Assembly (NCBI GenBank): GCA_963662715.1
Contig: OY759724.1
Coordinates: forward strand, 2,670,001-2,702,000
DNA length: 32,000 nucleotides
Origin: Candidatus Omnitrophota bacterium
Lineage (GTDB): Bacteria; Omnitrophota; Gorgyraeia; Zapsychrales; JANLHA01
Reading direction: 5' to 3'
Of this stretch, positions 4,172 to 31,058 are shown piece after piece. Within the stretch, counting starts at the first letter, position 1; each line of letters opens with the position of its first letter. The position numbers were made by a program, and so were the translations under genes. The notes under the pieces were generated by a model. It was not told the DNA's origin. It was given only the letters and a program-made list of their open reading frames with translations, and did no database searches.

Positions 4172-4972
4172 ATGAAATATTTCATTTTAATACTATTTAA
4201 TGCATTTTTGCTTTTTATCTTTATATCACAAGGGACTTTTGTCCAGGCGTCCATTCTTTATCAGGATTTTGAGCCTAACAACGGCACGCCGGCGAAACCG
4301 GCCTCTGATTCTCAAGATCCAGAATATGGCTGGGCTTTTAACGAGGCTGATGCGAGATTATCCCTGGATGGAGAACCTGTTCAGGCCGGGCTGTATTCCT
4401 GGCGGGTCGGGATCCCCTTTGCTGAAAAACTTGACTCGGGCAGTGGAATCGCCTCCCAAACCCAGACCTATAATATGAATTTTATCCCGGAATGCTTTGA
4501 TCGTTTAACATTCTGGATCTATTCCGAACCCCTGCATCCCGGGGCGCATACCGTCATGGTTAAATTTTTTGACCACGGAAAATATCATGATGAAGGTGTC
4601 GGGGTCTGGACCGCGGGGAAGGCTGCGCCGAATCAATGGGTTCGGCTGGAAATATTATTTGATCAACTGCCCGCGGACTTTGACCTGGCCCATGTTGACA
4701 AAATTGAGTTTTTTAATTATTGGGACGGCATTTACTATTATGACGACATTCTCATTGCTTCCGCGCAGGGAGAGGGGGAAGATGCGGCTTGCCTGGAGAC
4801 CGAAGGGTATGTCGTTTGTCATGAAGACCCTTTGAGGTCAGACAAGACGAAGAGTCTTTGTGTTTCTGTTTACAGCGGTCATGGCGAACAGTTGACGGAT
4901 TATTCATATATCAAAAGCAAGAAACGGTTAAGGATTTTTGACCGGTTGCAGTCTTCGAAAGAGAAGAATTGA
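4172..4972 (+). CDS. Secreted hypothetical protein, probable galactose-binding/CBM-like beta-sandwich
   Basis: Signal peptide MKYFILILFNAFLLFIFISQGTFVQA. The pattern W..NEADARLS ... LTFWIYS ... NQWVRLEILFDQLP ... VDKIEFFNYWDGIYYYDDILI resembles CBM11/CIA30-like sandwich domains. The upstream region is very AT-rich. The fold call is tentative. Confidence 0.7.
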   Translation: MKYFILILFNAFLLFIFISQGTFVQASILYQDFEPNNGTPAKPASDSQDPEYGWAFNEADARLSLDGEPVQAGLYSWRVGIPFAEKLDSGSGIASQTQTYNMNFIPECFDRLTFWIYSEPLHPGAHTVMVKFFDHGKYHDEGVGVWTAGKAAPNQWVRLEILFDQLPADFDLAHVDKIEFFNYWDGIYYYDDILIASAQGEGEDAACLETEGYVVCHEDPLRSDKTKSLCVSVYSGHGEQLTDYSYIKSKKRLRIFDRLQSSKEKN

Positions 4973-4990
4973 AAAGGGGACGAGTGGCCC

Positions 4991-5596
4991 ATGGATGAAC
5001 AGGTCCTGTTGGAAAATTGCCTGGAGGGGAATAAAGCAGGGTGGGATGAATTCATGGAGAAATATTCCCCGCTCATTTACGACTCCATCTTAAGAACGTT
5101 CCGCCGCTTTAATTACCAGGCTACACACGAGATGCTGGCTGACGTTCATCATGATTTCATCGTTTATCTGCTGGAGAATGATCATAAGATTTTAGGAGGT
5201 TTTGAAGGCCGCAATGGATGCCGATTTAAGCATTATCTGAGAACGGTTGTGATCCGTAAAACCATTGATTTCTTGAGAAAGTCCAAGCAGGGCGGGCGTC
5301 CCCAGCGGGTGATGAGCATCAATTCGCAGAATGAGGCGGCCGTGCATCAGGCCCTCCCGATCACGTCTTTTGAGCAGGATATTGATACCCGGTTAATTCT
5401 GCAGGCCGCGAATGAGATTTTTGATGAATTAAACAGCAACGAAAAAGATTTATGGCGGATGTTCTTTTCAGAAGAAATGAATCCTAAGGATATTGCTTTT
5501 CATCTGGGGATATCGGTTGACTGCTTCTATGTCCGAAAACAAAGATTATTAAGGAAACTCAAGACTTTAGCCGCGCGTAAGAATTTAACCTTTTAA
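4991..5596 (+). CDS. ECF-type (group 4) sigma-70 family sigma factor
   Basis: Region 2-like WDEFMEKYSPLIYDSILRTF ... ADVHHDFIVYLLEN ... FKHYLRTVVIRKTIDFLRK. Region 4.2 HTH MNPKDIAFHLGISVDCFYVRKQRLLRKLK. Starts 18 nt after the upstream gene. Confidence 0.85.
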   Translation: MDEQVLLENCLEGNKAGWDEFMEKYSPLIYDSILRTFRRFNYQATHEMLADVHHDFIVYLLENDHKILGGFEGRNGCRFKHYLRTVVIRKTIDFLRKSKQGGRPQRVMSINSQNEAAVHQALPITSFEQDIDTRLILQAANEIFDELNSNEKDLWRMFFSEEMNPKDIAFHLGISVDCFYVRKQRLLRKLKTLAARKNLTF

Positions 5597-5612
5597 TGTT
5601 GCGCATTGCCGG

Positions 5613-6296
5613 GTGACAACGCATATGATCAATAATAATGAGCCTCAAAACGGAGCAGAGCTCACGGATGAGATGCTGACGAGTTACGTTGAAGGCCTTC
5701 TGCCTGATGCCGACCGACAGCGGGTCGAACGTTTTATCTCTCAAAATGTCTTCCTGCATGAGGAGGTGGAGGCTTTAAAGTCCGTTTATCAGGCCCAGCA
5801 GGCCGAGGGACTTAATGTGGTCCCTGATGACATAACGGAAAGGACACAGAAGATACTCGGGGAATATTTTCAGACGGATGTCCTGAAAATTGTCGTATCA
5901 TGGGCGGACAATATATTCAGAGTTATCAAGAGCACCGGAGTCCTTCTCGTGGACCCTCAGGCTGCGGTTAAGCATGCTTTGCGGGACTCCGTGGCCAAGA
6001 GGAATGCCGCCGCTGTTCTGCAGAAGGATTTTCATAGGGCCCGGCTGATTGTCGAACTGTTCCCCCAGGGGGATGCCGCCATGACAGCGACAGTTATCCT
6101 TAAGAATTTTCAGGGACAGCTTGTCCAGACAATTCTGCGGATCACTTTGAAAGATCCTCAGGGAGAGCTGGAATCCCAGGATGTCAGTTCGGGGTACGCT
6201 GAGTTTGCGAATATCAAACCAGGAGAGTATCAGATCGATATCGCAGATTCCGGTCGTCGCATTGGAATGATATCGCTACAAATAAACCATTTATGA
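5613..6296 (+). CDS. Putative anti-sigma factor-like protein (no TM, no zinc ligands) with C-terminal beta-sandwich-like region
   Basis: It sits immediately downstream of the ECF sigma gene. The N-terminus LTDEMLTSYVEGLLPDADRQRVERFISQNVFLHEEVEAL follows the anti-sigma-domain helix pattern but lacks the H-x3-C-x2-C residues. The C-terminus (TLKDPQGELESQDVSSGYAEFANIKPGEYQIDIADSG) resembles carboxypeptidase-regulatory/Ig-like folds. An alternative ATG start lies at 5625. Confidence 0.6.
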   Translation: MTTHMINNNEPQNGAELTDEMLTSYVEGLLPDADRQRVERFISQNVFLHEEVEALKSVYQAQQAEGLNVVPDDITERTQKILGEYFQTDVLKIVVSWADNIFRVIKSTGVLLVDPQAAVKHALRDSVAKRNAAAVLQKDFHRARLIVELFPQGDAAMTATVILKNFQGQLVQTILRITLKDPQGELESQDVSSGYAEFANIKPGEYQIDIADSGRRIGMISLQINHL

Positions 6297-8398
6297 TGGC
6301 AAGTTCTACTTTTATATTGGAAGTTATTATTGCTCGGAAGGCTCTGGCCATGAGTCTTTATGAACGCGATTCCACCATGCGTCATTTTGATGAGGTCCTT
6401 CCCAATCAGCTGGTTATTGAACATTTATGTGCGGAAGCGATCCGTCTTATGAACAAGACGAATGTCTTAGGTCCGGCATCCGTAGGGTTATCATTCGAGT
6501 TGAAGAAAATAGGGCGTGCTCTTTTTGACCAATTGTTGAGTGAAACAGTCAAGGTCAAGTTGATCGACTCTCCGGTAGAGAACCTGATCTTTCTTATGGA
6601 TGAGGCTTTAATCCCCATCCCTTGGGAATTGTTGCATAACGGTCAGCAGTTCCTCTGTCTGCAATACAATGTGGGCCGCTCGGTCCGTACAAAGCGCCCT
6701 TCCTCGAAAACCGCCGAAAGAACCAGCTCATCGCCGATAAAAATGCTTGTCATGGCCGATCCCATCGGGGATCTGGATGAGGCCCGGGCGGAGGCGTTTA
6801 ATATCCGTCAGGAGACAGACCAGAAAAAACATTTTTTTTCTGTGACGACGAAGTTAAAGAAAATAACAGTTGATTATGTCATCAAAAATTTGCAGGACTA
6901 CGATATTGTTCATTTTGCCGGTCATAATGAATTTGACTACCAGAATCCCCTGAACAGCGGGTGGAAATTTTCCGACGGTCTATTCCGGGTTGAGGACGTT
7001 ATTAAAATGAAGGGCGGGGCTGCTATGCCGCTGCTGATATTCTCCAACGCCTGTCAATCGGCGGTTTTATTGCGTGGGCAAAAAGTCATCGGAGAAACAG
7101 GCCGGATATTTTATGGCATTGCGAATGCCTTTTTGCTGGCCGGAGTGAAGCATTTTCTGGGAACGTTATGGGAAATCCCGGATCAGGTTGCGGCTGTTTT
7201 TTCCCGCGAGTTTTATGCGCAGATCTGTGAGGGCATGCCGATCGGGACGGCGATAAGAGAAGCGCGTTTAAAGATTATCCGGGTCTTTGGAGAAGATACG
7301 GTCATCTGGTCCTCCTATGTTTTATATGGGGACCCTTCGGCCCCGGTTGTTTCTCCGGAAATGCTGGCAGCGCCGTCAGGGGAATCGGCTCCGGTTTTTA
7401 CTCCGGTCTCGAAACAGATAGCCATATATGTCGGGATAGGATTGTTCACGCTTTTGGCGTTGGCCGTCTTGGAGAATGTCTCGCGACAAAGATCCCGGCA
7501 GTCTCTTATCCCGGACGTGAATGCCGTATCAGCACAAAAAAAGGTCGAGAAAAAACAGCCCAAAACATCTCCCCAAAAGAAAGACGTCACGCAGGAGGAT
7601 ATTCATGCTGTTTTCTGGCCCCCGGCGGAAAAAATTAATCAGATAATTCATGATCTTAATCTTGACCTCGGCAAGGTTGAGGATCCCAAGGTCCTTTACG
7701 AGTATTATCGTCTTTTGATAGATTCCTATGCCATGGTGAATCAATATCGTCTGGCAACGCTTTATACGGAAGCTGTCATAGAATTGGCTAAGGCTCAGGA
7801 CGATAAAGATGTTTTGGTCGAGGCGTATCTGGAGTGCGCCGATGTCCTGCTGGAAGAATTTGTGTATTTCCGGCTTCCTATCGAATCAGTTGAGGAAAGA
7901 GGCAAGTTCGGGGATGCCGTCAGTAAACAGATTTTAACGAGGATAACAGGCTATTATCAGGAGGGCATGTCCCTGACGGTCGGGAAAGAAAATGTCCGGC
8001 AGCTTCTCCGGGCTTATCAGGGATTAGGAAGAGTCTATAAATATCACGACGACAACAAATCGGCGATTGCTTTTTACGAGAAAGCCGTAGAGATACTTGA
8101 ACAAAGTCCCCAGCTGCCCCGCAGCGAAGTGTATCAGCTGGCCTATGATTATGTGGAGTTAGCCACTCTTTATCTGGAGGAACATAAGGCTTTTGACAGG
8201 GCCCTTGTATATTTAAGCCGTATGGTCAGGCAAATGAATGGCATCTCTCCCACGTCTTTGGAGGACCATGTCATTTTAAAACCCGTTATCCGGAAATTTG
8301 ATCTGCTGCTCCGCGATCTTCATCAAAAAGGCTTGTCATCCACGCAGTTTTATCCTAAGGCTATGCAGTTATACCGGAATCTGAACACAAAACGGTAA
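6293..8398 (+). CDS. CHAT-domain (caspase-fold) protease - single TM - basic linker - TPR-like helical repeats
   Basis: CHAT motifs: IPWELLH, IVHFAGH (His211, nt 6923-6925), LLIFSNACQSA (Cys254, nt 7052-7054), FLLAGVKHFLGTLWEIPD, WSSYVLYGDP. Hydrophobic span IAIYVGIGLFTLLALAVLENV. C-terminal TPR-like AIAFYEKAVEIL / LATLYLEEHKAFDRALVYL. The ATG overlaps the upstream stop (ATGA at 6293-6296). Confidence 0.85.
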   Translation: MMASSTFILEVIIARKALAMSLYERDSTMRHFDEVLPNQLVIEHLCAEAIRLMNKTNVLGPASVGLSFELKKIGRALFDQLLSETVKVKLIDSPVENLIFLMDEALIPIPWELLHNGQQFLCLQYNVGRSVRTKRPSSKTAERTSSSPIKMLVMADPIGDLDEARAEAFNIRQETDQKKHFFSVTTKLKKITVDYVIKNLQDYDIVHFAGHNEFDYQNPLNSGWKFSDGLFRVEDVIKMKGGAAMPLLIFSNACQSAVLLRGQKVIGETGRIFYGIANAFLLAGVKHFLGTLWEIPDQVAAVFSREFYAQICEGMPIGTAIREARLKIIRVFGEDTVIWSSYVLYGDPSAPVVSPEMLAAPSGESAPVFTPVSKQIAIYVGIGLFTLLALAVLENVSRQRSRQSLIPDVNAVSAQKKVEKKQPKTSPQKKDVTQEDIHAVFWPPAEKINQIIHDLNLDLGKVEDPKVLYEYYRLLIDSYAMVNQYRLATLYTEAVIELAKAQDDKDVLVEAYLECADVLLEEFVYFRLPIESVEERGKFGDAVSKQILTRITGYYQEGMSLTVGKENVRQLLRAYQGLGRVYKYHDDNKSAIAFYEKAVEILEQSPQLPRSEVYQLAYDYVELATLYLEEHKAFDRALVYLSRMVRQMNGISPTSLEDHVILKPVIRKFDLLLRDLHQKGLSSTQFYPKAMQLYRNLNTKR

Positions 8399-9120: not shown

Positions 9121-11088
9121 TCAGAAAAGATAAGCGCCCCAGAAGGAAAGGATAAGGACAAACAGAATCGCGAGTCCCCATTTGCATGTTGTGAAAAGAA
9201 AAGCAAAGAATATGACCGGATGCAGAATGCTTATGGAGGCGTGAGTGAAATGTTTGGTCTGAAATACGGGCCAGTAGCAGGAGAAGTTCCGCCAGTTCAG
9301 GCTGAGCATCCGCTCTTGTTGCAGCATATCTTTATACAATTGGGTTCCTGGCAGAGGCGTCAGAAGAGAGACAGCGGTCCAGTCCGGAAAAATACGGAAA
9401 CAACACAGCCAATATTTGAAGATGTTTTTTATCCTGTCTGAATCAAAGCCGATGATGAAATGTCCTTCAATATGTATTCCCGCCTTTTTAATCCTTTTCG
9501 TATATTCAATAAACTTGTCTGCCAGGGCGAACTTCCCTCCTTGAGACTTTTCCAGGGAAGCGCTGGTGATTTCATACCCGATCAGCAGCCCCTGACAGCC
9601 GCTTTCTTTAGCCAATTTCAGCAGGGGTTCGTTGCCTCCGATATCGATACTACAGTTGGCAATCCATTTCATTTTTAACGGTTTCAGGGCCGTGAACAAT
9701 TGTTTGGCATAGGCCGGGTCAGAATAAATGTTGTTGTCAATAAAGCTGACGGTCGTGTATTTGGTCCTTACTCTTTCAAGTATTCTGACGACCTGTTCCA
9801 CCGTCCTGTGCCCGAACCGGCCTTGGCACAGAGCGGAAATGCAGCAAAAGGAACAGTGGAACTTACAGCCATAACTCGCTTCCAGATAATAACGGATAAT
9901 ATCCGGGGAGGCGTTCAGAAGTTCATTGTAAATCCTGTCGCGGACAGCTTGCGAGGCCGCGCCGCCCTGATACATTTTTTTGAGGGAATTGTTTTCATGA
10001 TCCCGAACAACCTCTTCCCAGACACTTTCAACCTCTCCGACCACCACGGCATCGCAGAATTCCAAAGCTTCATGGGGGACAAAAGACACATGAGGCCCGC
10101 CCATGATGACAGTAGAGCCTTTTTGGCGAAAGCCTTTGGCGATACGGTAGGCTTCAAAGCAGTTGCTGGTAAAGCAGGTGATCGCCACCAATTTCCCGGG
10201 GCGGAAGTAAGACGACTGCCAGAAAACTCTTGAAAAGCTGCGGACGGAATAATTCTTAGGCGTTAAGGCCGAAAGCACGACGAACACCGGCGGATAAAAT
10301 CGCAGAAAGATAGAGGTTAAGACTTCGATGACAGAGCCTCCTCCCAGGGGATTGATAAGAAAAAGCTCTTTCTCCGGAGGAGGATTCCGGCTGAAGTAGT
10401 CCGTTTTTGAAAAAAACAAAAGGCAGAGATAAACGAATAGAAAAAGGTGCGTATATTTTACGATAAATATGAGGCTTAAAGTCAGAAGGGCATGTATTTG
10501 CGGTTCTTGTTTTAACAACACGGCACAAGAGATGTTGATAAGGATAATCAGCAGAATCTGGACGACTGTCTTCAGAGGTAGCGGAAGGCTTAAAAGCTTG
10601 CCGGGAGATGTTTTAAGGAAATATCTCGCAATAATGAGCAGGGTTAAAAATATGAGGCAAACGGGCTCCAAAAAAACAGTCCAGTAGGCGTAATCCATGC
10701 GCGGGAGGAAGACAAAGGAACAAAACTGTATGCCTAGAAGGAAAATTTGAAAAAAGGTGAAAAGAAGCCAGGTGCGCTTGATTTGTTCTATGATCAAAGG
10801 TCTGGATACGAGATATTCTTTCCCGGAGCACAGCACGGCAAAACAGCCGTATATCCCTGAGTAAATGATGATTTTTAAAGGCAGTAAGCTCAGGAATATG
10901 AAAGGGAAGAGAGACTTGAAAATGCCGGCAGGCAGGAGGATGCTGATGGACGGGATCTCCAGTAAAAGAATAAGGAAGACGGCGGACATCAGGGAATGAA
11001 GAATATTCCAAGTGTCTTTTAACGGATGTTCAGCTGAATTCATGATCAAAAGAATCCGAAGGCGGCAGATATCTGTCCCCGGGTTCAT
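9121..11088 (-). CDS. B12-binding-domain radical SAM enzyme fused to an N-terminal polytopic membrane domain (about 6 TM) and a C-terminal hydrophobic tail
   Basis: Radical SAM motif YGCKFHCSFC (C408-x3-C412-x2-C415, nt 9844-9867). B12-binding-like KLVAITCFTSNCFEAYRIAKGFRQKGSTVIMGGPHVSF. aa ~30-228 form successive hydrophobic helices. C-terminus ILHPVIFFAFLFTTCKWGLAILFVLILSFWGAYLF. An alternative start is Met16 (nt 11043). Confidence 0.85.
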   Translation of the reverse strand: MNPGTDICRLRILLIMNSAEHPLKDTWNILHSLMSAVFLILLLEIPSISILLPAGIFKSLFPFIFLSLLPLKIIIYSGIYGCFAVLCSGKEYLVSRPLIIEQIKRTWLLFTFFQIFLLGIQFCSFVFLPRMDYAYWTVFLEPVCLIFLTLLIIARYFLKTSPGKLLSLPLPLKTVVQILLIILINISCAVLLKQEPQIHALLTLSLIFIVKYTHLFLFVYLCLLFFSKTDYFSRNPPPEKELFLINPLGGGSVIEVLTSIFLRFYPPVFVVLSALTPKNYSVRSFSRVFWQSSYFRPGKLVAITCFTSNCFEAYRIAKGFRQKGSTVIMGGPHVSFVPHEALEFCDAVVVGEVESVWEEVVRDHENNSLKKMYQGGAASQAVRDRIYNELLNASPDIIRYYLEASYGCKFHCSFCCISALCQGRFGHRTVEQVVRILERVRTKYTTVSFIDNNIYSDPAYAKQLFTALKPLKMKWIANCSIDIGGNEPLLKLAKESGCQGLLIGYEITSASLEKSQGGKFALADKFIEYTKRIKKAGIHIEGHFIIGFDSDRIKNIFKYWLCCFRIFPDWTAVSLLTPLPGTQLYKDMLQQERMLSLNWRNFSCYWPVFQTKHFTHASISILHPVIFFAFLFTTCKWGLAILFVLILSFWGAYLF

Positions 11089-11231: not shown

Positions 11232-12119
11232 ATGAAGAATTTGATTTCTTTCAATACGAATGAATGGTTTTTTGAGACGGCCTTCCCTGGAATACGGAGA
11301 TGTAAAAGAGATGGTTTCTGGATTGAAAAGGAAATATTCAAGGGAAAGACGAAATATCAGGATATTTATATTTTTAAAAGTCTTGGTTTCGGCCGGGTTT
11401 TGACTTTGGATGGTATTGTCCAATTATCGGAAAGCGACGAGTTTATTTACCATGAAATGATTGTGCACGTGCCCTTAATGGCGCATCGTAATGCCCGGAA
11501 GGTCCTGATAGTCGGGGGGGGCGACGGGGGGACGTTAAGGGAGGCGGCCAAACATCCTTTGCAGGAAATCGTTATGGTCGATTTAGATGAAGGCGTGATT
11601 GACATTTCCAAGAAATACCTGCCTTTCGTTTCCCAGGGCAGTTTTTCCGACAAACGCCTGCAATTGCATATTGAGGATGGCTTGAAGTTTATTAAGAAAT
11701 ACTCTGATTACTTTGATATTATTATTGTCGATTGCACTGATCCCGTTGGCCCGGGAAAAGTCCTGTTTGAGATGGACTTTTACCGGAAGGTTTTTTCGGC
11801 TTTGAATAAAGACGGGATAGCCATGTTTCAGCTGGGGCCATTTCTGGATTTTGATCTTATCATTCAGCCGAGCGCTAAAAAACTCCGAAAGCTTTTTTCA
11901 TCGGTACATCCGGTGAGACTTCCCATGCCATCGTATAGTTGCGGTTCGGAATATTGTTTTATGGCGGCTTCCAAAACTACGGACTTAGCTAAAACCAGCA
12001 GGTCAGTTATTGAAAAAAGAGTAAAACAAAGACTTGGTGGACACGCTAAAAAACTTAAGTATTACTCACCGGAAATTCATTTTACCAGTATGGTTATGCC
12101 CCGGTTATGGCAGCTATGA
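11232..12119 (+). CDS. speE: Spermidine synthase (aminopropyltransferase)
   Basis: KYQDIYIFKSLGFGRVLTLDGIVQLSESDEFIYHEMIVHVPL, VLIVGGGDGGTLRE, DIIIVDCTDPVGPGKVLF. RBS ggagg lies 12 nt upstream. Confidence 0.9.
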   Translation: MKNLISFNTNEWFFETAFPGIRRCKRDGFWIEKEIFKGKTKYQDIYIFKSLGFGRVLTLDGIVQLSESDEFIYHEMIVHVPLMAHRNARKVLIVGGGDGGTLREAAKHPLQEIVMVDLDEGVIDISKKYLPFVSQGSFSDKRLQLHIEDGLKFIKKYSDYFDIIIVDCTDPVGPGKVLFEMDFYRKVFSALNKDGIAMFQLGPFLDFDLIIQPSAKKLRKLFSSVHPVRLPMPSYSCGSEYCFMAASKTTDLAKTSRSVIEKRVKQRLGGHAKKLKYYSPEIHFTSMVMPRLWQL

Positions 12120-13138
12120 ACAGGAAAGTAACGCCAAACATTGCCATATTAGGGGATGGCCGCATCGGTCAGGCCGTGGCTTATTACTTCAAGAAATGCC
12201 GGGGTATCGGCCGGGTCGAGTTTGTCACGGCAGAACAGCAGCTGAAGCAGAGTCATCTGCTTGTCGGGGCTCTGCCGGGAGAACTTGGCGAAAAGGGCCT
12301 GAAACTGGCGCTGAAATACCGGCTGCCCCTTATAGACATTTCTGATCTGGACCCGGAATTTTACCTGGATCAGGAGGCGGCGATTTTTGAAAGACAAATT
12401 CTCGTTGTCCCTGGCTGCGGTTTTTGTCCGGGACTGATGAATTTTCTCCTTGGCCGCGAAATAAACAATTTGAAAGATCCTGTTGAGGACATTGAGGTAA
12501 AAGCAGGATCTCTGTCTCCGCAGGATCATTATTTCCCTTTTCTTTGGTGTTTTGAAGATTTGATCAACGAACACCGGATCCCCTCCTGGCAAATTATCAG
12601 CGGAAGAAAGAAAAAGTTTGCCCCGTTTGCCGGGTATCAACACGAGAAATTTTTTGATATCAACGCGGAGAGTTATTTTTCCGCCAGCGGTTTTGAGAAT
12701 GTTCTTGATAAAGTCAAAATTAAAAATCTCAAATGCCGCGTTGTCAGGCCGAGGGGGTTTATGGCTTTTTTCCTTTTCCTGGAACACGCGGGATATCTGA
12801 ACAAAGAAAATTTTATGCTATCTAAAAAAATCCTGGAATCGAAAAAGGAAGCCAACTATACGTTAGCAGAAATGACTTTACTCACCCGAAAGGAGAAAAT
12901 TGTTTGGGGACTTAAAACTTATGCGAAGAAGAACGCAGGACTTAATTCCATGCAGAAAATAACGGCCTCGGTTGCCGCTGTGCTGGGACAGACTATTTTG
13001 CGGGATAAGATAAAAAGGAGGGGTTTGCTGTTTTTAGAAGATTTGAGCGGTGATGCACACATTTTTTCTTTACTTTTAGCTGAACTCAAAAAGAAGGGTG
13101 TCGATATTTCGAGAAAAAAGGAGAAGCGGAAGTTATGA
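12107..13138 (+). CDS. Saccharopine dehydrogenase-family NAD(P) oxidoreductase (carboxy(nor)spermidine dehydrogenase-like, short form)
   Basis: Rossmann IAILGDGRIGQAV. LVVPGCGFCPGLMNFL matches the G-x-x-PG-l-x-n motif. YFPFLWCFEDLINE matches the f-s-W-S-p-x-x-l-i-x-e motif of Sacchrp_dh_C. It overlaps the speE stop; the in-frame ATG at 12116 would give an ATGA overlap. Confidence 0.65.
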   Translation: MAAMNRKVTPNIAILGDGRIGQAVAYYFKKCRGIGRVEFVTAEQQLKQSHLLVGALPGELGEKGLKLALKYRLPLIDISDLDPEFYLDQEAAIFERQILVVPGCGFCPGLMNFLLGREINNLKDPVEDIEVKAGSLSPQDHYFPFLWCFEDLINEHRIPSWQIISGRKKKFAPFAGYQHEKFFDINAESYFSASGFENVLDKVKIKNLKCRVVRPRGFMAFFLFLEHAGYLNKENFMLSKKILESKKEANYTLAEMTLLTRKEKIVWGLKTYAKKNAGLNSMQKITASVAAVLGQTILRDKIKRRGLLFLEDLSGDAHIFSLLLAELKKKGVDISRKKEKRKL

Positions 13139-13671
13139 AGCCTCACTCTTATATAACAAACAAAGTGGAAGTCCGGGAATCAGGGAAGGACCGTAAGGGC
13201 GTATTTGCTCTTCAGGAAATTGCGAAAGACGAAATTATTTCCATCTGGAGCGGGTATATCGTTTCCGGTGATGAATTGGTGTCCTTGTCCGAGACAACTT
13301 TCAAGAATGTTTATGATTATGCCATAGATATTGCAGACAACTTTTTTTTGGTGTCCAGCCGGGACGGCACGTTGGAGGACGATGATTTCTTTAATCACAG
13401 CTGTGAGCCCAATGCCGGGATAAAAGGCCAGTCGGTTTTGGTGGCGATGCGCAGCATTGCCCCGGGGGAAGAAATCACCTATGATTACGCGATGACGGAC
13501 GCCCAGTCAGACCTGTCTTTTGAATGCCATTGCGGCAGTCCGCAGTGCCGCGGATATGTTTCGTCGTCCGATTGGAAAAGACGGGAACTGCAGCAGAAGT
13601 ACAGAGATTATTTTTCAAGTTATATTCAAGGGAAGATTGATCAATCTCGGGACGTGCATTGCAAATTTTGA
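13135..13671 (+). CDS. SET-domain (lysine-type) N-methyltransferase with post-SET cysteine cluster
   Basis: KGVFALQEIAKDEIISIWSGYIV, FFNHSCEPN, GEEITYDYAM, post-SET CHCGSPQCRGY. ATGA stop/start overlap with the upstream gene at 13135-13138. Confidence 0.88.
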   Translation: MKPHSYITNKVEVRESGKDRKGVFALQEIAKDEIISIWSGYIVSGDELVSLSETTFKNVYDYAIDIADNFFLVSSRDGTLEDDDFFNHSCEPNAGIKGQSVLVAMRSIAPGEEITYDYAMTDAQSDLSFECHCGSPQCRGYVSSSDWKRRELQQKYRDYFSSYIQGKIDQSRDVHCKF

Positions 13672-13687
13672 ACCTACGGTTTTTTTT

Positions 13688-14269
13688 ATGGAATTTTATG
13701 AATACAGAATCAGGTTAGACGAAGCTTTGACCTATAATAATTTGCGACAGGCCAAGGTTATTGCTACGCTGGCTTACCTTAAAGCGCGAAGGGTGGAGTG
13801 TTTATCGGAAAGGCTTTATTTTAAGGCGCAGTTGGCGATCATTGATGAGGATTATATTGAAGCTATCGAACTGTTGGAAAAGACGATCCAACATAACCCT
13901 CATGATGGCGCAGCCTTTAATGATCTGGCCCTTTGCCTGGTCGAACTGGGTCTGCTTAAGGAATCCTTGTTTTATTTTGACCGGGGTATCAAAGCTGAGC
14001 CGGATTATGCCAATATTTATCACAATAAAGGCTGGTTGCTCGCTCATTTAGGGCATTATACGGAAGCCATGGCTCTTTATCATAAGGCTTTGTTTTTAGA
14101 GCCGCACAGGGCTGTGACCTATGAGAACCTGGGGCATATTTTGGAAGGTTTAGGCCGAAAAGAGGAGGCTGTTTCTGCCTACAGGAAGGCGGTTGGGTTG
14201 CTTAAGTCCGAACATGGGACCATACGGCGTCAAATTCAAGACCGTATTCAGGAAATCCTTTGTAACTGA
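13688..14269 (+). CDS. Tetratricopeptide repeat (TPR) protein
   Basis: Consecutive TPR units: AAFNDLALCLVELGLLKESLFYFDRGIKAEPDY, ANIYHNKGWLLAHLGHYTEAMALYHKALFLEPH, AVTYENLGHILEGLGRKEEAVSAYRKAV. I used the ATG at 13688 because the track start at 13520 would overlap the SET gene by about 150 nt. Confidence 0.85.
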   Translation: MEFYEYRIRLDEALTYNNLRQAKVIATLAYLKARRVECLSERLYFKAQLAIIDEDYIEAIELLEKTIQHNPHDGAAFNDLALCLVELGLLKESLFYFDRGIKAEPDYANIYHNKGWLLAHLGHYTEAMALYHKALFLEPHRAVTYENLGHILEGLGRKEEAVSAYRKAVGLLKSEHGTIRRQIQDRIQEILCN

Positions 14270-14307: not shown

Positions 14308-14336
14308 TAGACAAGAGGGAAAAATAAGATTATAAT
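14308..14336 (+). promoter_or_regulatory. Candidate sigma70-type promoter (TAGACA - 17 nt - TATAAT)
   Basis: -35 TAGACA at 14308-14313, exactly 17-nt spacer, perfect -10 TATAAT at 14331-14336. About 80 nt upstream of the ATG at 14416, in an AT-rich gap. Confidence 0.4.
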
Positions 14337-14415
14337 ATTTTGTAATCTAAAATATGCGAAAATGACTTAAATTTACTGAAAATGGCTTTAATTGTGCTTA
14401 ATAAAGGAGATTGCT

Positions 14416-14724
14416 ATGCAGGAATATCAAGACACGAATTTTGCCGATGAATTTCTGCCATATCTTTTGGTTTTGTTGGTGGTTTCGTTGCTGTTATATC
14501 TGTTTTTATATTTTCTGAATATAAACGCGTCCCAATACAAAAGAGCCTCCGCGGAAAAACCTAGGATTGATTTCCTGGGCCGGCCCATTGCCGACAAGGC
14601 CTCGAAAAGAGCAGAAATTGTCCTTGAAAAACAGAAACTGCTTCTGGAAAGACGCAAAGACCGGTTAAAGAACCAGCAAAGTCTTTCTGATCTGAGAAAG
14701 TCGTTTCGTAGAAATGATATTTAG
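14416..14724 (+). CDS. Small single-pass membrane protein with basic coiled-coil tail (hypothetical)
   Basis: RBS aaaggag lies 6 nt before the ATG at 14416. TM LPYLLVLLVVSLLLYLFLYFL. Charged tail EKQKLLLERRKDRLKNQQ. A good sigma70-like promoter lies upstream. Confidence 0.5.
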   Translation: MQEYQDTNFADEFLPYLLVLLVVSLLLYLFLYFLNINASQYKRASAEKPRIDFLGRPIADKASKRAEIVLEKQKLLLERRKDRLKNQQSLSDLRKSFRRNDI

Positions 14725-14966
14725 GGCTTGGATAATCTCTGGGGCTTATTTTTAATATTTCTGCAGTAGAATTGTTATCCTGCTTGTGACAAATCTTTAA
14801 ATTTTATTAAAAATGCATAAGAATATCCCGTGTCCGCGGCTTTTTTGTTAGCCGCATGGGTTTGTAGATGAATTTTATGGCAGAAACAAATCGGAGTGGG
14901 ATAGATCCGCTTTGAAAATTTGTTGGCTGAGAAAAACATATTACCGACTTACTTCCGGAGGGACAC

Positions 14967-15782
14967 TTGAAAACCGTTATTTCTGCTTCCCGCAGAACGG
15001 ATATCCCGGCCTTTTATCTGCCCTGGTTTATTGATTGTCTGAAACAGGGATATGCTGATATCATAATTCCCCGGGGCCTGCCCAAAAGGGTCGACCTGCA
15101 GCCGGATGCGGTTCATTCGATTGTTCTCTGGTCAAAGAATTTCCGGCCCTTTTTAAAACGCCGGAGTGAATTCAAGAAATACCGTCTTTATTTTCAGTTT
15201 ACGGTTAATGATTGTGCGGTGTTGGAGCCGCGCGTTCCCGGTCTTCCGGAGCGCCTTGAACAAGTCAGGGAACTCGCGGATATTTTCGGGCCGGAATATA
15301 TTCACTGGCGTTTTGACCCGATTATCTTTTGGGATGAAGGGCGGGCCAGTAATATGGGCCACTTTTGCGATATCGCGCAAAAGATGTTTTCCTCCGGCAT
15401 TCGCAGGTGTACATTCTCCTTCTGCACCCATTACCGGAAGACCGTTAACCAGACACGGCGGAAAGGGCTGATATTGTTTGATCCGCCTTTGGAAGAAAAG
15501 AGGCGCATCGCGGAGGAATTAGGGCGCATAACCCAATCCCTGGGTATAACCCTGTATGCATGCAGCCAGCCGGGATTGTCAGGAATAAAACATGTCTCCG
15601 TCGCGAAATGTATCGATGGGAATTTATTGGAACAATTGTTCGGAGAAAGGGCTTCCAGGGCAAGGGACAGGTCGCAGAGGGAGGAATGTCATTGCACTAA
15701 AAGCGTGGATGTCGGAAGTTACAACTTGAAATGTCTGCACGGCTGCAGCTATTGTTATGCGAATCCCGGAATTCTTGCATAG
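14967..15782 (+). CDS. DUF1848-family protein (uncharacterised, Cys-rich C-terminus)
   Basis: N-terminal signature ISASRRTDIPAFYLPWF and C-terminal cluster CHCTKSVDVGSYNLKCLHGCSYCYANP, as I recall for DUF1848. TTG start follows ggaggg. Confidence 0.75.
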   Translation: MKTVISASRRTDIPAFYLPWFIDCLKQGYADIIIPRGLPKRVDLQPDAVHSIVLWSKNFRPFLKRRSEFKKYRLYFQFTVNDCAVLEPRVPGLPERLEQVRELADIFGPEYIHWRFDPIIFWDEGRASNMGHFCDIAQKMFSSGIRRCTFSFCTHYRKTVNQTRRKGLILFDPPLEEKRRIAEELGRITQSLGITLYACSQPGLSGIKHVSVAKCIDGNLLEQLFGERASRARDRSQREECHCTKSVDVGSYNLKCLHGCSYCYANPGILA

Positions 15783-22912: not shown

Positions 22913-23305
22913 ATGATGAAAAAGATACTTGTTGTTGATGACTCCTCTGTTCAGCGTAAAATGATACACCAAATCATTAAACAAGCCGGTTTTGAAAATG
23001 ATGTCCTGGAAGCAGGAAATGGAGAAGACGCGATTCAGGTCCTTGGGACAAATTTTAAAGAAGTCGGACTTATTTTATGTGACTGGCATATGCCGGAGAT
23101 GAATGGTGTGGAGTTTATTGCAGGGGTCGCGAAGGTTCAAGCTGTAGCTGAAATCCCTGTGGTTATGGTTACGACGGCGGGAACGGAAGAGAAACTCAAG
23201 CAGGCGTACAGCGTCCATCCAAATTTGAAGGGGTATGTCGTAAAACCCTTTACATCTGAAAAATTGCGGACAATTATTGCACCATTGTTGGAGAGCACCT
23301 CTTAA
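22913..23305 (+). CDS. cheY: Chemotaxis response regulator CheY
   Basis: ILVVDDSSVQRKMI, LILCDWHMPEMNGVEF, VVMVTT, YVVKPF. 130 aa, single domain. Confidence 0.88.
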   Translation: MMKKILVVDDSSVQRKMIHQIIKQAGFENDVLEAGNGEDAIQVLGTNFKEVGLILCDWHMPEMNGVEFIAGVAKVQAVAEIPVVMVTTAGTEEKLKQAYSVHPNLKGYVVKPFTSEKLRTIIAPLLESTS

Positions 23306-23322
23306 TTTGAACGAAAAATCGT

Positions 23323-23826
23323 ATGGAAGAACAGAACCAGAATACAAAGAATGACTCCGGATTGCCTAAGGACATTCTCCAATTTGTTTGTTTTAAATTG
23401 GCGGAGGAAGAATATGCTATTGATATCAGCCTGATTATGGAAGTTATCAAAATTCTTCCCGTTACCCCTGTTCCTCAGGTTCCTGATTTTTGCCTGGGGC
23501 TCATTAATTGCCGGGGAACGATTATTCCTCTTTTTGATCTCAGGATCAAGGTCCGGTTGCCCCAGAAACCTTTTGATTCAAAATCGAGGATCCTCATTGC
23601 CAATGTCGGGCAAGATTTCATTGGCTTGGTCATTGACGAAATACTGGATAATATCCGTGTCGAAACAAATCAAGTGGATTTAACGAAGTATTTGGCTATG
23701 AAAATCGGGAAGGAATATATTTGCGGGGTTGCGAGGGTGGAGGACCGGATGGTTGCCATATTGGATTTTCAGAGAATGCATAGTGTTATTTTTGAAGAAA
23801 TGACCTCGACACATGTTCAACCGTGA
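23323..23826 (+). CDS. cheW: Chemotaxis coupling protein CheW (copy 1)
   Basis: FVCFKLAEEEYAIDISLIMEVIKILPVTPVPQVPDFCLGLINCRGTIIPLFDLR ... LIGLVIDEI. Confidence 0.88.
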   Translation: MEEQNQNTKNDSGLPKDILQFVCFKLAEEEYAIDISLIMEVIKILPVTPVPQVPDFCLGLINCRGTIIPLFDLRIKVRLPQKPFDSKSRILIANVGQDFIGLVIDEILDNIRVETNQVDLTKYLAMKIGKEYICGVARVEDRMVAILDFQRMHSVIFEEMTSTHVQP

Positions 23827-23859
23827 GGGCATATTGTTGCAGATACCGAGAGGATTACG

Positions 23860-24318
23860 ATGCAGGATAGTGAAAAAAGAAAACCGTCAGAAAGTCAGGA
23901 AGAAGTAAAGGTCATTGAGTTTTCTATTGGAGATTCGAGCTACGGGGTCTCTATCGACCAGGTTAAGGAGATTATTGCGGCTAATATTATGGTTGTCCCA
24001 GTCCCGGATGCCTTGCCGACCATTGAGGGAGCTATTAATTTGCGCGGGAGAATTATCCCGCTTATTAATTTGGCCAAGTTTCTGAACGCTGATACGGATA
24101 AAATAGGAAGGATTATTATTTCTGAGTTCCAGCAGAATTATTTTGGTTTTGGCGTGACAGAGGTGGCGAAATTGCACTCGGTGTCCGCGCGGGATATTGA
24201 AGACCCGCTTGATTTGCTGCAGGCCCGGGAGGGCTATGTGGTCGGCATTTCCAAGATTAACGAAAGAATCCTTTATTTATTAGATTTGAAAAAAATCGCA
24301 CAGTCCATTAACGCCTGA
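23860..24318 (+). CDS. cheW: Chemotaxis coupling protein CheW (copy 2)
   Basis: VIEFSIGDSSYGVSIDQVKEIIAANIMVVPVPDALPTIEGAINLRGRIIPLINLAKFL. RBS gagagga. Confidence 0.85.
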   Translation: MQDSEKRKPSESQEEVKVIEFSIGDSSYGVSIDQVKEIIAANIMVVPVPDALPTIEGAINLRGRIIPLINLAKFLNADTDKIGRIIISEFQQNYFGFGVTEVAKLHSVSARDIEDPLDLLQAREGYVVGISKINERILYLLDLKKIAQSINA

Positions 24319-24337
24319 ATCGGGGGGATTGGTTTAT

Positions 24338-24769
24338 ATGATGAATCGACAGCAAGCTGAACACGGGGAACAGCGGAAGTATGTCCGGATCGACCGTCGT
24401 TATATCATAAAATGTTCCCCTTTTTCGGCCAAAGATTTTTTGTCCCCCTCATCCGCGGATATTACAGAAGGGTTATTGAAAAATATCAGTTGCGGCGGAG
24501 CTCTTTTTGAATCAGGAGCCAAATATGATGTGGGGACATTGCTGCGGATTGAACTGGCTTTGCCGGGATGGGAGCAGTTCAAGGTCGAGTTCCTTAAAGA
24601 TGACAAGACGACATATTCCGCCCCTTTAACCGTCCTGGCCCATGTCGTGAGATTGGAAGTCCTTATCCAGAATGAGTTGTATGATATCGGGGCGTGCTTT
24701 TCCGCGATTGATGAAGGAGACAAATGGGCCTTATTTAAATATATCCAGAAATATTCCAAGAAGCATTAG
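24338..24769 (+). CDS. PilZ-domain (c-di-GMP binding) protein
   Basis: RxxxR motif in QRKYVRIDRRY, and (D/N)xSxxG motif in NISCGGALF. ATG at 24338 follows gggggg; the track TTG is at 24329. Confidence 0.8.
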   Translation: MMNRQQAEHGEQRKYVRIDRRYIIKCSPFSAKDFLSPSSADITEGLLKNISCGGALFESGAKYDVGTLLRIELALPGWEQFKVEFLKDDKTTYSAPLTVLAHVVRLEVLIQNELYDIGACFSAIDEGDKWALFKYIQKYSKKH

Positions 24770-24784
24770 AGCCTATTTTTTAGA

Positions 24785-25642
24785 ATGACGAATACCCCAC
24801 TTAAGATCAGTGATTATGAATTTGATGTCTTAAAAGACATTATGTATAAGCGTACCGGAGTTTTCTTGCGAGAGACAAAAAAGGCGTTGGTGATTTCCCG
24901 GCTGCGGAAGCGGCTGCTTGAGTTGGGCCTTTCCACTTTTGCAGAGTATATCTCTCTTCTGCGGGCGCCCGGCAGTCCGGAGGGGGACATCTTTGTTAAT
25001 GCGATCACGACCAATGAAACCAATTTTTACCGGCATCCCAAACAATTTGATTATCTGTCAGCACATGTGTTGCCTGAATTGCGGGACGTGAAAACAAAAA
25101 TTGGCCAGAAAACAATACGTATATGGTCTGCGGCCTGCTCTACAGGGGAAGAGCCCTATACGATCGCTATGATCTGTCAGGAATTCTTTATGTCGGATAA
25201 ATCCTGGGATGTCCGGATTTACGCTTCGGATATTAATAGCGAAGTCCTGAACTATGCCAAGAAAGGGGAATACTCGGAGCGGTCAGTCCGGGAACTCCCG
25301 GAACATTTGCTGGAAAAATATTTCCAACACAAAGAATTTGAGACAACTTATGGGAAAGAGAAGAAATATCTCTTGTCCGATAATATTATGAAGTTAGTCC
25401 AATTCCAGCGGCATAACCTGTTAACGTCTTTCAGGCAGAAGTATATCGATGTGGTTTTTTTTCGTAACGTTATGATCTATTTTGGAACAGAAAGCAAAGA
25501 AGACGTCTTGAGAAAAATTCATGCGATCATGTCCCCCGGGGGGTATTTGTTTATCAGCCTTTCTGAAAATCTTCCGTATAAGGGGATGGGGTTTGAGTTT
25601 CTGACTTTAGGGGTGCACCGCAGGCTGGATGATAAGGCCTGA
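24785..25642 (+). CDS. cheR: Chemotaxis protein methyltransferase CheR
   Basis: TNETNFYRHPKQFDYL, IRIWSAACSTGEEPYTIAM, DVVFFRNVMIYF. Confidence 0.92.
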   Translation: MTNTPLKISDYEFDVLKDIMYKRTGVFLRETKKALVISRLRKRLLELGLSTFAEYISLLRAPGSPEGDIFVNAITTNETNFYRHPKQFDYLSAHVLPELRDVKTKIGQKTIRIWSAACSTGEEPYTIAMICQEFFMSDKSWDVRIYASDINSEVLNYAKKGEYSERSVRELPEHLLEKYFQHKEFETTYGKEKKYLLSDNIMKLVQFQRHNLLTSFRQKYIDVVFFRNVMIYFGTESKEDVLRKIHAIMSPGGYLFISLSENLPYKGMGFEFLTLGVHRRLDDKA

Positions 25643-25664
25643 TCTGCGGGACAAGGAGCCGAAA

Positions 25665-26723
25665 ATGATAAAAGCCGTTATTGCCGATGACTCCCAGCTT
25701 TTTAGAAAGGCATTAACAGAACTGTTGGAAACAGACGGGCGGATTTCCGTTATCGGAGCCGCTGCGGACGGACATGAAGCCATCCAGTATGTTAAAACCT
25801 TGACACCGGATGTCCTGATCCTGGACTATCAAATGCCGGGGATAGATGGGTTGGAAACGCTTAAGATCATTATGGAGGAAAATCCTCTCCCGGTCCTTAT
25901 GCTGAGCGCCTTAACAAAAGAAGGGGCGGCTGTGACATTGCGGGCTTTGGAATTAGGAGCCGTAGATTATTTTACAAAACCTATCAGACATGCCGGGGAT
26001 ATTAAACAAGTTTCTGATGAGCTCATACAAAAAATTGTCGCTGTTGTGCAAACCAAAGCCATTTCATATCCTAAGCCCATCCCCCGACCTGTCAAGGGAG
26101 ATCTTAAAGCACTTAAAGATTTGAAAAAGAGAGACGTAGATATTATTGCCGTCGGTTCATCCACGGGAGGCGTTAAGGCGGCCGTCGATATCCTTTCGGA
26201 CCTGCCTTCGGCCATGAAACCTATCGTCTGGGTGCAGCACATGCCCCGTACTTTTACGGCCAGTTTTGCGGAACGCCTGAATCAATATTCCAAACTGCAT
26301 GTTAAGGAAGCAGAAGACGGCGATGTCGTTCAGCCCGATACCTGTTATATTGCCCGGGCAGGTTTTCAGATGGTCGTTGAATCCAAGGATAATCACCGGC
26401 GGCTTCGTTTGTATGAGGATCTCAGTTCGGACAATCTCCATTGCCCGTCATGTGATGTCCTGTTTGAATCCGTGGCCAAGCTATACGGTACTAAGGCCAT
26501 CGGTGTCATTTTGACCGGTATGGGCAAAGACGGAACCGAAGGGTTGCTGAAAATGCATGAACAGGGGGCCTTTGTGATTGGCCAGAATGAGGCCAGCAGT
26601 ATTGTTTACGGCATGGCTAAAGCCGCGAGAAAAGCCGGAGCCGTTGATCTGGAATTAGACGTGTGTTATGTAGCGGAAGCGCTCGTGCGACTAGGCTCAG
26701 CGCAGATGAAACTGAATTTATAA
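25665..26723 (+). CDS. cheB: Chemotaxis methylesterase/deamidase CheB (REC + esterase)
   Basis: REC: AVIADDSQLFR, VLILDYQMPGIDGLETL, DYFTKP. Esterase triad context: IIAVGSSTGG, WVQHMP, VILTGMGKDG. ATG at 25665 follows aaggag; the track start at 25629 overlaps cheR. Confidence 0.92.
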   Translation: MIKAVIADDSQLFRKALTELLETDGRISVIGAAADGHEAIQYVKTLTPDVLILDYQMPGIDGLETLKIIMEENPLPVLMLSALTKEGAAVTLRALELGAVDYFTKPIRHAGDIKQVSDELIQKIVAVVQTKAISYPKPIPRPVKGDLKALKDLKKRDVDIIAVGSSTGGVKAAVDILSDLPSAMKPIVWVQHMPRTFTASFAERLNQYSKLHVKEAEDGDVVQPDTCYIARAGFQMVVESKDNHRRLRLYEDLSSDNLHCPSCDVLFESVAKLYGTKAIGVILTGMGKDGTEGLLKMHEQGAFVIGQNEASSIVYGMAKAARKAGAVDLELDVCYVAEALVRLGSAQMKLNL

Positions 26724-26742
26724 ACATCCTTCAGGAATTCTT

Positions 26743-29574: not shown

Positions 29575-29575
29575 A

Positions 29576-30070
29576 ATGGATTTTTATCAAGTCGACCAAA
29601 AACTGATCGTGGGGATTGCCGATATAAAAGTTGCAAAGGCTCCCTATGTTATTGAGACCAATCTCGGTTCTTGTATTGCCGTCTGTCTGTATGCGCAAGA
29701 GGAAAAAGCGGGGGGGATGGTGCATATCATGATGCCTTATGCCGAAGAGAATTCGGAGCAGGCCCGGCAGAAGAAAGCCAAATATGCCAATACCGCCATC
29801 CCGGAACTCATCCATCAAATGAAAATAAAATTTGGAATTGATGCCCAGAAATTAAAAGCCAAAATGTTCGGTGGCGGAAAAATATTAAAGGATTTTACTA
29901 TTAATATCGGAGAACTCAATGAACAGGCTTCGCGGGAAGCTCTGCGCCTTGTCGGAATTCCTATTCTTGCGGCTAAAACCGGCGGGGAGAAGGGGTACCG
30001 GGTCGCATTCAATTTGGAAGACGGGAAAGTCCGTTGTCAAAGATTCGGAGATACGATAGAGGAGTTTTAG
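29576..30070 (+). CDS. cheD: Chemoreceptor glutamine deamidase CheD
   Basis: ETNLGSCIAVCLY (catalytic Cys), GGMVHIMMP, KMFGGGKIL. ATG lies 1 nt after the cheA stop; the track start at 29540 overlaps cheA. Confidence 0.88.
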   Translation: MDFYQVDQKLIVGIADIKVAKAPYVIETNLGSCIAVCLYAQEEKAGGMVHIMMPYAEENSEQARQKKAKYANTAIPELIHQMKIKFGIDAQKLKAKMFGGGKILKDFTINIGELNEQASREALRLVGIPILAAKTGGEKGYRVAFNLEDGKVRCQRFGDTIEEF

Positions 30071-30072
30071 TT

Positions 30073-30675: not shown

Positions 30676-30689
30676 AAACGAGGTGTTTT

Positions 30690-31058
30690 ATGTCCAAAAG
30701 AATTGTTATCGTTGATGACGCGCCGATCATCCGCTCGATGCTGAGGGATATCCTGGAACAGGGGGGCTACGAGGTTATTGCGGAATGTAATAATGGTTTT
30801 GAAGCCGTGGAAACCTATCGCGAACTGAATCCCGATCTCCTGACTATGGATATTGTCATGCCGGAGAAAGACGGCCTGGAGGCTTTGCACGATATCTTGG
30901 CCATTGACGGGAACGCCAAGATTGTTATGGTCACAGCTGTTGATCAACGGGTATCCTTAATGAAAGCGATTCGGGCCGGTGCGGTGGATTATATCATTAA
31001 ACCGTTTGAGAGTGAACGGGTCCTGTCTGCCGTCCGGACAGCCTTGGGCGTAGAATAG
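30690..31058 (+). CDS. cheY: Chemotaxis response regulator CheY (second copy)
   Basis: IVIVDDAPIIRSML, LLTMDIVMPEKDGLEAL, IVMVTA, DYIIKPF. RBS gaggtg. Confidence 0.9.
   Translation: MSKRIVIVDDAPIIRSMLRDILEQGGYEVIAECNNGFEAVETYRELNPDLLTMDIVMPEKDGLEALHDILAIDGNAKIVMVTAVDQRVSLMKAIRAGAVDYIIKPFESERVLSAVRTALGVE

Follow-up and report, generated by a model that had tools for sequence, protein, structure and literature searches.

Gene content of the locus

A 32,000-nt stretch of DNA from a Candidatus Omnitrophota bacterium (GenBank assembly GCA_963662715.1, contig OY759724.1, positions 2,670,001 to 2,702,000 of the forward strand; hereafter the window, with positions counted from its first letter) was analyzed with a focus on a four-gene unit that begins with the polyamine gene speE. 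Four genes on the + strand were read head to tail directly from the open reading frames (ORFs), namely speE, a saccharopine-dehydrogenase-like gene (gene and product are both referred to as SDHL), a SET-domain gene (SET), and a tetratricopeptide repeat (TPR) gene, joined by two ATGA overlaps and one 16-nt gap. The unit belongs to a conserved module of translationally coupled genes, in which the gene for a canonical aminopropyltransferase is accompanied by SDHL in every case and by SET in most, and this module may build and tailor a polyamine. Coupling of the four genes, both overlaps, and the spacing of the TPR gene were found in the ORFs and domain scans just as the original prediction, made from the sequence of the window, had described them.

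The polyamine aminopropyltransferase gene speE (11232-12119, +; 295 aa) opens the unit in this genome and ends in a TGA stop at 12117-12119. It is followed by SDHL (12116-13138, +; stop at 13136-13138), encoding an NAD(P)-binding enzyme of the saccharopine dehydrogenase fold. In-frame ATG codons occur in this ORF at 12107 (343 aa) and 12116 (340 aa); the second gives the ATGA overlap with the speE stop, and the resulting 340-aa product agrees with the public gene call (P0001), which lies on a contig of 3.36 Mb. The SET-domain methyltransferase gene (13135-13671, +; 178 aa, stop at 13669-13671) starts with an ATG at 13135-13137 that overlaps the SDHL stop in the second ATGA, and its product consists of the SET domain, a post-SET motif, and a family-specific C-terminal helix. 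The TPR gene (13688-14269, +; 193 aa) begins 16 nt past the SET stop when read from the ATG at 13688. A TTG-start version of the TPR ORF (249 aa, 13520-14269) was set aside in favor of this ATG; it overlaps the SET gene and is probably spurious. An antisense ORF of 212 aa inside SDHL (12149-12787, -) is probably spurious as well.

No terminator-like sites were found at any of the four gene junctions, and a promoter-like site (TAGACA-17-TATAAT) was located 3' of the TPR gene at 14308-14336. Rfam and tRNA scans of the window yielded no matches, and given the empty Rfam scan, the unit was taken to have no riboswitch leader.

Conservation and operon architectures

A scan of one genome per GTDB species yielded 47 loci with SDHL identities of 35-64%, and nearly all SDHL homologues belonged to Candidatus Omnitrophota. 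Loci were annotated by phmmer using the window proteins as well as speD, bpsA, and GNAT genes from relatives as queries, and their ORFs were called by a simple longest-ORF procedure. In all 46 loci that held upstream DNA, speE was immediately upstream of SDHL, and SET was immediately downstream of SDHL in 38 of the 47. Conservation of the gene order in related genomes, which the original prediction had named as a test of its proposal, is thus extensive. The genes are closely spaced, with a median speE-to-SDHL gap of -4 nt (≤ 20 nt in 48/49) and a median SDHL-to-SET gap of -1.5 nt (≤ 20 nt in 36/40), and the flanking genes vary between lineages. Given that the arrangement recurs in 47 species at this level of SDHL divergence, with unrelated flanks and tight gaps, it is far beyond chance.

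Architectures were counted across the 47 scan loci, the window, and four further contigs. The order speD-speE-SDHL-SET was found at 32 loci, and speD-bpsA-speE-SDHL without SET at seven (one of these without speD). The window type, speE-SDHL-SET-TPR, accounted for five loci. Two tandem speE genes preceded SDHL-SET at three loci, three others had speE-SDHL only or speD-speE-SDHL, one had speE-SDHL-SET, and at one the contig was cut off upstream of SDHL-SET. When SDHL sequences were placed in a neighbor-joining tree, the bpsA type formed one clade nested among speD-speE-SDHL-SET types, and the window type formed one derived clade. The operon core is speD-speE-SDHL, with or without SET. Within approximately 7 kb of 50 loci, ornithine decarboxylase (ODC), arginine decarboxylase (ADC), agmatinase, and transporters were sought, and nothing recurred beyond speD, speE, bpsA, and SET.

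SpeE and the supply of decarboxylated S-adenosylmethionine

The first protein matched the Pfam families Spermine_synth (196 bits) and Spermine_synt_N, the N-terminal tetramerization domain. It also exceeded the cut-offs of two NCBIfam equivalogs, PRK00811 (NF002010; 299.9 vs 260 bits) and TIGR00417 (278.8 vs 249.55 bits), and by these curated cut-offs it is confirmed as a canonical polyamine aminopropyltransferase. Its translation carries the motifs VGGGDGG and VDCTDPVGP; based on general knowledge of SpeE structures, we take GGGDG to be the motif that binds decarboxylated S-adenosylmethionine (dcSAM) and D-x-x-D-P to be the catalytic loop.

No homologues of speD, carboxy(nor)spermidine decarboxylase (CANSDC), or deoxyhypusine synthase were found among the scanned window ORFs, in line with the original prediction, which had reported speD and carboxynorspermidine decarboxylase as missing from the window. 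In most relatives a bona fide speD heads the operon, with the S-adenosylmethionine decarboxylase (AdoMetDC) signature AESHIAIHTWPE and a score that passes TIGR03330; the absence of speD from the operon is a peculiarity of the window clade. At one locus (L040:5498-6739), a single 413-aa ORF upstream of SDHL-SET combines AdoMetDC and spermidine synthase, a SpeD::SpeE fusion that is either genuine or an assembly artefact.

BpsA, the branched-chain polyamine synthase, transfers aminopropyl groups from dcSAM. One clade has BpsA in the operon and no SET, and at other loci bpsA and a SET gene are directly coupled. The two enzymes would each increase the substitution of polyamine nitrogens; bpsA itself is not in the window.

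Known spermidine operons resemble this one. Like speD-speE spermidine operons, its relatives have a bona fide class 1b speD directly upstream of speE, but the window unit adds two conserved, translationally coupled genes, SDHL and SET, that occur in no described spermidine operon. Other Omnitrophota have a complete pathway made up of a SpeD1::SpeDC fusion and SpeE, and the phylum has been reported to lack pyridoxal 5'-phosphate (PLP) biosynthesis (Li et al. 2023, PMC10407285). These clusters have a canonical SpeE, the phylum, and a PLP-independent logic in common with the SDHL operon, whereas the latter is without an ODC domain and, in its window version, also without speD.

The saccharopine-dehydrogenase-like protein

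SDHL matched a single Pfam family, Sacchrp_dh_C (41.3 bits, cut-off 31), and had no NCBIfam match. The AlphaFold2 model (mean predicted local distance difference test score, pLDDT, 93.4) was searched using Foldseek, and the best match was the L-lysine 6-dehydrogenase (LysDH) of Pyrococcus horikoshii (PH1688, PDB 3ABI; E 2e-29, template modeling (TM) score 0.8, 24% identity). The next ranks were carboxyspermidine dehydrogenases (CASDH; 8H4Z, 8DEB, 4INA), the saccharopine dehydrogenase domain of AASS, and saccharopine reductase (TM 0.73-0.82, 12-18% identity). A profile built from 32 SDHL family sequences gave the same first match (3ABI, E 6e-36), followed by saccharopine reductase and AASS at about 1e-5, with no CASDH chain at E ≤ 0.01. 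Homospermidine synthase was found neither in the 50 best Foldseek matches nor among the profile matches. By these comparisons, SDHL is a previously uncharacterized, shortened member of the superfamily of lysine 6-dehydrogenase, CASDH, and saccharopine reductase.

CASDH and carboxynorspermidine dehydrogenase (CANSDH) are NAD(P)-dependent enzymes of polyamine biosynthesis that form a C-N bond on a diamine. SDHL has the fold of these enzymes and of CAPA dehydrogenase (TM about 0.75), but it is about 50 residues shorter, as the original prediction had suspected, and works alongside SpeE rather than in its place. A partner carboxyspermidine decarboxylase was absent from the window and did not recur near the 50 loci. 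With likeness at the level of the fold only, no CASDH match to the profile, and no decarboxylase partner, an identity as CASDH/CANSDH was rejected. The catalytic triad of BfCASDH is His228, Glu229, and Glu230 (PMC10413350); the SDHL consensus does not have a conserved HEE, and its invariant E194 lies in a roughly equivalent segment as judged by alignment offsets only.

Residues were compared in an alignment of 32 SDHL and 23 archaeal LysDH-family sequences, and residue roles were assigned by alignment. Both families have the motifs GxG, ALPG, DxS, and GFxPG as well as D148, E152, E185, and R211. Other LysDH-family residues are exchanged in SDHL (R212 for E194, Y172 for H153, D209 for S191, H233 for F215, SP for CF, and F96 for D77), and approximately 29 residues of the Rossmann domain are missing, among them the conserved Asp with which beta-2 ends; SDHL may prefer NADP(H). 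Within SDHL, E194, D148, E147, E185, W144, W264, N195, and N247 are invariant and E152 is nearly so, a set of acidic, Trp, and Asn residues that fits a polyamine-type substrate. SDHL thus appears to be a separate family, whose more acidic active site would suit a cationic amine rather than an amino-acid carboxylate.

The original prediction had asked whether SDHL groups with ordinary enzymes of lysine metabolism. Its nearest characterized relative is indeed such an enzyme, and PH1688 is of similar length; nevertheless, with 24% identity, the Rossmann segment gone, and R, H, Y, and D residues replaced by E, F, H, and S, SDHL stands as a family of its own. Neighborhoods of archaeal LysDH genes were examined for polyamine genes and no linkage was observed, and the idea that the archaeal LysDH family is itself polyamine-linked was rejected.

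A direct fusion was found in a Nannocystaceae metagenome-assembled genome, where one ORF (L049:8651-10618) encodes a 655-aa SDHL::Spermine_synth protein. Its neighbors are another speE, a gene resembling flavin monooxygenases, and, on the opposite strand, a third Spermine_synth gene; the locus may be a cluster for a polyamine-derived secondary metabolite. Fungal Spe3-Lys9 is a spermidine synthase fused to saccharopine reductase (PMC10051792) and, like the L049 fusion, physically joins an aminopropyltransferase to an enzyme of the saccharopine dehydrogenase superfamily; however, Lys9 is a genuine lysine-biosynthesis enzyme, the domain order is reversed, and there is no SET partner. A 541-aa SDHL homologue (P0106) was checked for a fused SET domain, and none was found.

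The SET-domain protein and its relatives

The third protein matched the Pfam SET family at 53.9 bits (cut-off 22.4). Across 40 family members, N87, H88, C90, D117, Y118, C131, C133, and C138 are invariant and S89 and Y116 nearly so. The family keeps the NHSC motif, EEITYDY with the catalytic Tyr, the post-SET CxCx4C, and a C-terminal helix of its own (DWKxPELQxKYxGYFSxYLQxRI). The AlphaFold2 model (pLDDT 90.7) bore out the SET fold, and its Foldseek matches comprised ASH1L, NSD1, SETD2, MLL1, and BurB, all at TM 0.55-0.67, and this structural comparison, tried as a means to separate protein-modifying from small-molecule SET methyltransferases, gave no separation. BurB is a 172-aa SET-only methionine S-methyltransferase that acts on the free amino acid (PMC12542666; PDB 9L4T). 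It was among the PDB sequence matches (E 5.5e-10, residues 86-145 only), and with TM 0.55-0.61 it was no better a match than the histone methyltransferases. As a stand-alone bacterial SET protein of about 175 aa, like the one in the window, BurB provides a precedent for SET domains that are able to methylate free small molecules. The similarity is nonetheless weak and partial; BurB is an S-methyltransferase of dimethylsulfoniopropionate and malleicyprol chemistry, whereas the window protein keeps N-methyltransferase motifs and is polyamine-linked.

Distant SET relatives were sampled at 35-59% identity to the scan query (P0234), which is itself 47% identical to the window SET. The sole recurrent partners of these relatives were polyamine and dcSAM genes, in three arrangements. 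The first is bpsA-SET followed by a gene of the major facilitator superfamily (MFS), with a 4-nt overlap (L053, L054). The second is speE-SET-apt, found with mtnN and speD adjacent at L064 (assigned by NCBIfam equivalogs) and in the same order at L092. At the former locus (L064:7091-10201), speE-SET-apt lies on one strand and mtnN, encoding a methylthioadenosine (MTA)/S-adenosylhomocysteine (SAH) nucleosidase, on the other, followed by speD; this nucleosidase would remove the MTA released by SpeE as well as the SAH released by SET.

In the third arrangement, a separate bona fide speD is followed by a gene for a 300-aa SET::AdoMet_dc fusion (L068:1717-2619 and L090:3725-4624). Over 168 residues, C-terminal helix included, the SET part of this protein shares 40% identity with its window counterpart, and the decarboxylase domain keeps the catalytic Ser, His, and Cys. 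This pyruvoyl decarboxylase domain of the SpeDC type shares 48% identity (E 3e-42) with the C-terminal domain of SpeD1SpeD2 from Ca. Omnitrophica OLB16, including the motif FGEDERV..SLVQLIETSLVSGHFAN, using an OLB16 sequence that was transcribed from the machine-read Fig. S5 of PMC10407285. The C-terminal (SpeDC) domain of the OLB16 protein is a biochemically validated L-ornithine decarboxylase (Li et al., PMC10407285). No earlier description of a fusion of the SET::SpeDC type was found in the literature searched. A SET domain fused to a putrescine-forming enzyme is hard to square with a protein-lysine target and argues for a diamine, polyamine, or ornithine substrate.

The TPR gene and the rest of the window

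The fourth protein of the unit matched several TPR Pfam families. A TPR homologue occupies this position only in the window and at four other loci (L001, L005, L006, and L007); none of the remaining 33 operons with SET in the genome scan has one. The gene is a lineage-specific recent passenger and its membership of the functional unit is doubtful; given that it is confined to five loci of the window clade, it is not a core adaptor, the role in which the original prediction had cast it.

Divergent from speE lies a gene for a B12-binding radical SAM protein (9121-11088, -) whose hydrophobic N-terminal portion (about 280 aa) probably spans the membrane several times. Its position is kept in the window clade, and elsewhere only weak matches of 23-68 bits were seen (L037, L041, L042); with clear homologues limited to the window clade, it was rejected as a core gene. 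A hydrophobic 110-aa ORF and then a DUF1848 protein gene (14392-15782, +) follow 3' of the TPR gene in an order kept in L001, L005, and L007. The TPR, B12-binding radical SAM, 110-aa, and DUF1848 genes are all limited to the window clade. Further upstream, three consecutive ORFs without Pfam matches (266, 201, and 227 aa) precede a gene for a 701-aa CHAT-domain protein (4172-8398, +), and a CHAT gene is also found upstream of the operon in L001. A complete chemotaxis cluster running in one direction (CheY, two CheW, PilZ, CheR, CheB, CheA, CheD, CheC/CheX-like, and CheY) occupies 22913-31058 (+), and beyond the unit the window contains signaling, CHAT, TamB-like, and chemotaxis genes. GC skew is positive in every 1-kb interval of 1-32000 (cumulative 4.05) and the + strand carries nearly all genes, which fits a leading-strand segment far from origin and terminus.

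Proposed function and alternatives

The reading we favor, with a probability of about 0.5, is that of a self-contained polyamine biosynthesis and tailoring operon typical of Omnitrophota, in which the SET protein would N-methylate a diamine or polyamine and SDHL would act on a polyamine-type substrate in NAD(P)-dependent C-N chemistry. SpeE would move an aminopropyl group from dcSAM onto an amine acceptor, giving spermidine or a close analogue. The dcSAM would come from the speD of the operon in most relatives, and in this genome speD would have to lie elsewhere. SDHL could perform either an oxidative deamination or a reductive condensation at a terminal aminoalkyl carbon, dependent on NAD(P)(H) and acting on a polycationic substrate, presumably the SpeE product or its precursor. 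The SET protein would be a small-molecule N-methyltransferase that uses SAM to methylate a terminal primary amine of the diamine or polyamine, a group that resembles the lysine side chain. The original prediction had likewise linked SET to polyamine chemistry, as a speculative idea, and this part gained independent support from the speE-SET-apt and bpsA-SET-MFS arrangements and the SpeDC fusion; a methylated, extended, or branched polyamine, which it had proposed as the product, stands as a candidate.

Several observations weigh against this reading. To our knowledge, N-methylated polyamines have not been reported from these bacteria. The operon has no visible source of the amine acceptor (ODC, ADC, or agmatinase), so SDHL could act ahead of SpeE and not after it. 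Some loci have SDHL but not SET and others SET but not SDHL, so the two need not act on the same molecule. In fold and motifs, SET is indistinguishable from protein-lysine methyltransferases. About 65 metagenomic loci hold distant SET relatives, most of them with heterogeneous neighbors, so that a tie to polyamines is not obligatory for the SET family at large. Lastly, the absence of speD is a statement about the ORFs of the window and not about the whole genome to which it belongs.

A bolder proposal, whose chances we would put somewhat short of even, is that the SET family represents the missing polyamine N-methyltransferases, so that the operon would make an N-methylated, possibly permanently charged polyamine, with SDHL forming or remodeling a backbone C-N bond without PLP.

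The main rival, which we consider unlikely, places SDHL upstream of SpeE, where it would act independently of PLP and with NAD(P)H as a reductive aminase or condensing enzyme and would supply the acceptor, taking the role of the pyruvoyl ornithine decarboxylase SpeDC of other Omnitrophota, with SET still tailoring the product. The operon couples dcSAM supply and transfer without ODC, ADC, or agmatinase, as this scheme would have it. Furthermore, the beta-2-end Asp of LysDH has no SDHL counterpart, and the loss of an Asp at this position fits NADP(H) and a reductive role. Other Omnitrophota complete the pathway with SpeD1::SpeDC and SpeE in a phylum reported to be without PLP synthesis (PMC10407285). 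However, without a decarboxylase it is not obvious how a central metabolite could become a diamine in one step, and some SDHL operons include BpsA, an enzyme that depends on spermidine already made.

A hypusine-like modification, in which a methylated, polyamine-derived group would be placed on a protein lysine with SET as protein-lysine methyltransferase and the TPR protein presenting the substrate, had been offered as an alternative in the original prediction and is, in our view, improbable. Among known structures, the SET model comes nearest to the histone methyltransferases ASH1L, NSD1, SETD2, and MLL1, its catalytic motifs are intact, and the saccharopine dehydrogenase superfamily includes enzymes that act on lysine epsilon-amines. 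Yet the TPR gene is found in the window clade only, the scanned window ORFs hold no deoxyhypusine-synthase homologue, and no conserved candidate target protein lies nearby (approximately 7 kb, 50 loci); the SET-ornithine decarboxylase fusion and bpsA-SET-MFS point instead to small molecules. Nothing specific was found in favor of such a modification.

Still less probable is a BurB-like S-methyltransferase that would convert a thioether of SAM/MTA metabolism, e.g., methionine, to a sulfonium, with the polyamine link reflecting common SAM-derived substrates. BurB is of similar size and among the PDB sequence matches, and the neighbors of SET at L064 (apt, mtnN, and speD) belong to the salvage of SAM by-products. 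The likeness to BurB is, however, no better than that to lysine methyltransferases, the links of SET to BpsA by coupling and to ornithine decarboxylase by fusion suggest that its substrate is an amine, and the catalytic Tyr of N-methylating SET enzymes is conserved.

The view that the genes are adjacent but unrelated, SDHL being an ordinary lysine-catabolic dehydrogenase (its nearest characterized relative is L-lysine 6-dehydrogenase) and SET an unrelated protein methyltransferase, is very improbable and largely refuted by the synteny data, as order and codon overlaps are kept across 47 species with unrelated flanks, fusions exist, archaeal LysDH genes are not beside polyamine genes, and SDHL departs from LysDH at conserved active-site positions.

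Implications

Full-text literature searches returned no description of a SET-polyamine operon or of the SDHL family. The enzyme superfamilies involved are all known, and what is new is a polyamine operon that includes two new accessory enzymes. Most polyamine pathways are considered to have been mapped, and a conserved four-gene module with two uncharacterized enzymes, present phylum-wide, would add chemistry to them. If the SET family does represent the missing polyamine N-methyltransferases, the operon would contain the first SET-domain enzyme to N-methylate a small molecule as well as a new bacterial polyamine pathway. The substrate range of SET domains, so far protein lysines and one known thioether, would come to include free amines. 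We know of no methyltransferases that have been assigned to the making of N-methylated polyamines, e.g., the long-chain polyamines of diatoms, and this family would supply candidate enzymes. The prediction is specific, phylum-wide, and easy to test, and it may show how polyamines are built in organisms with little or no PLP.

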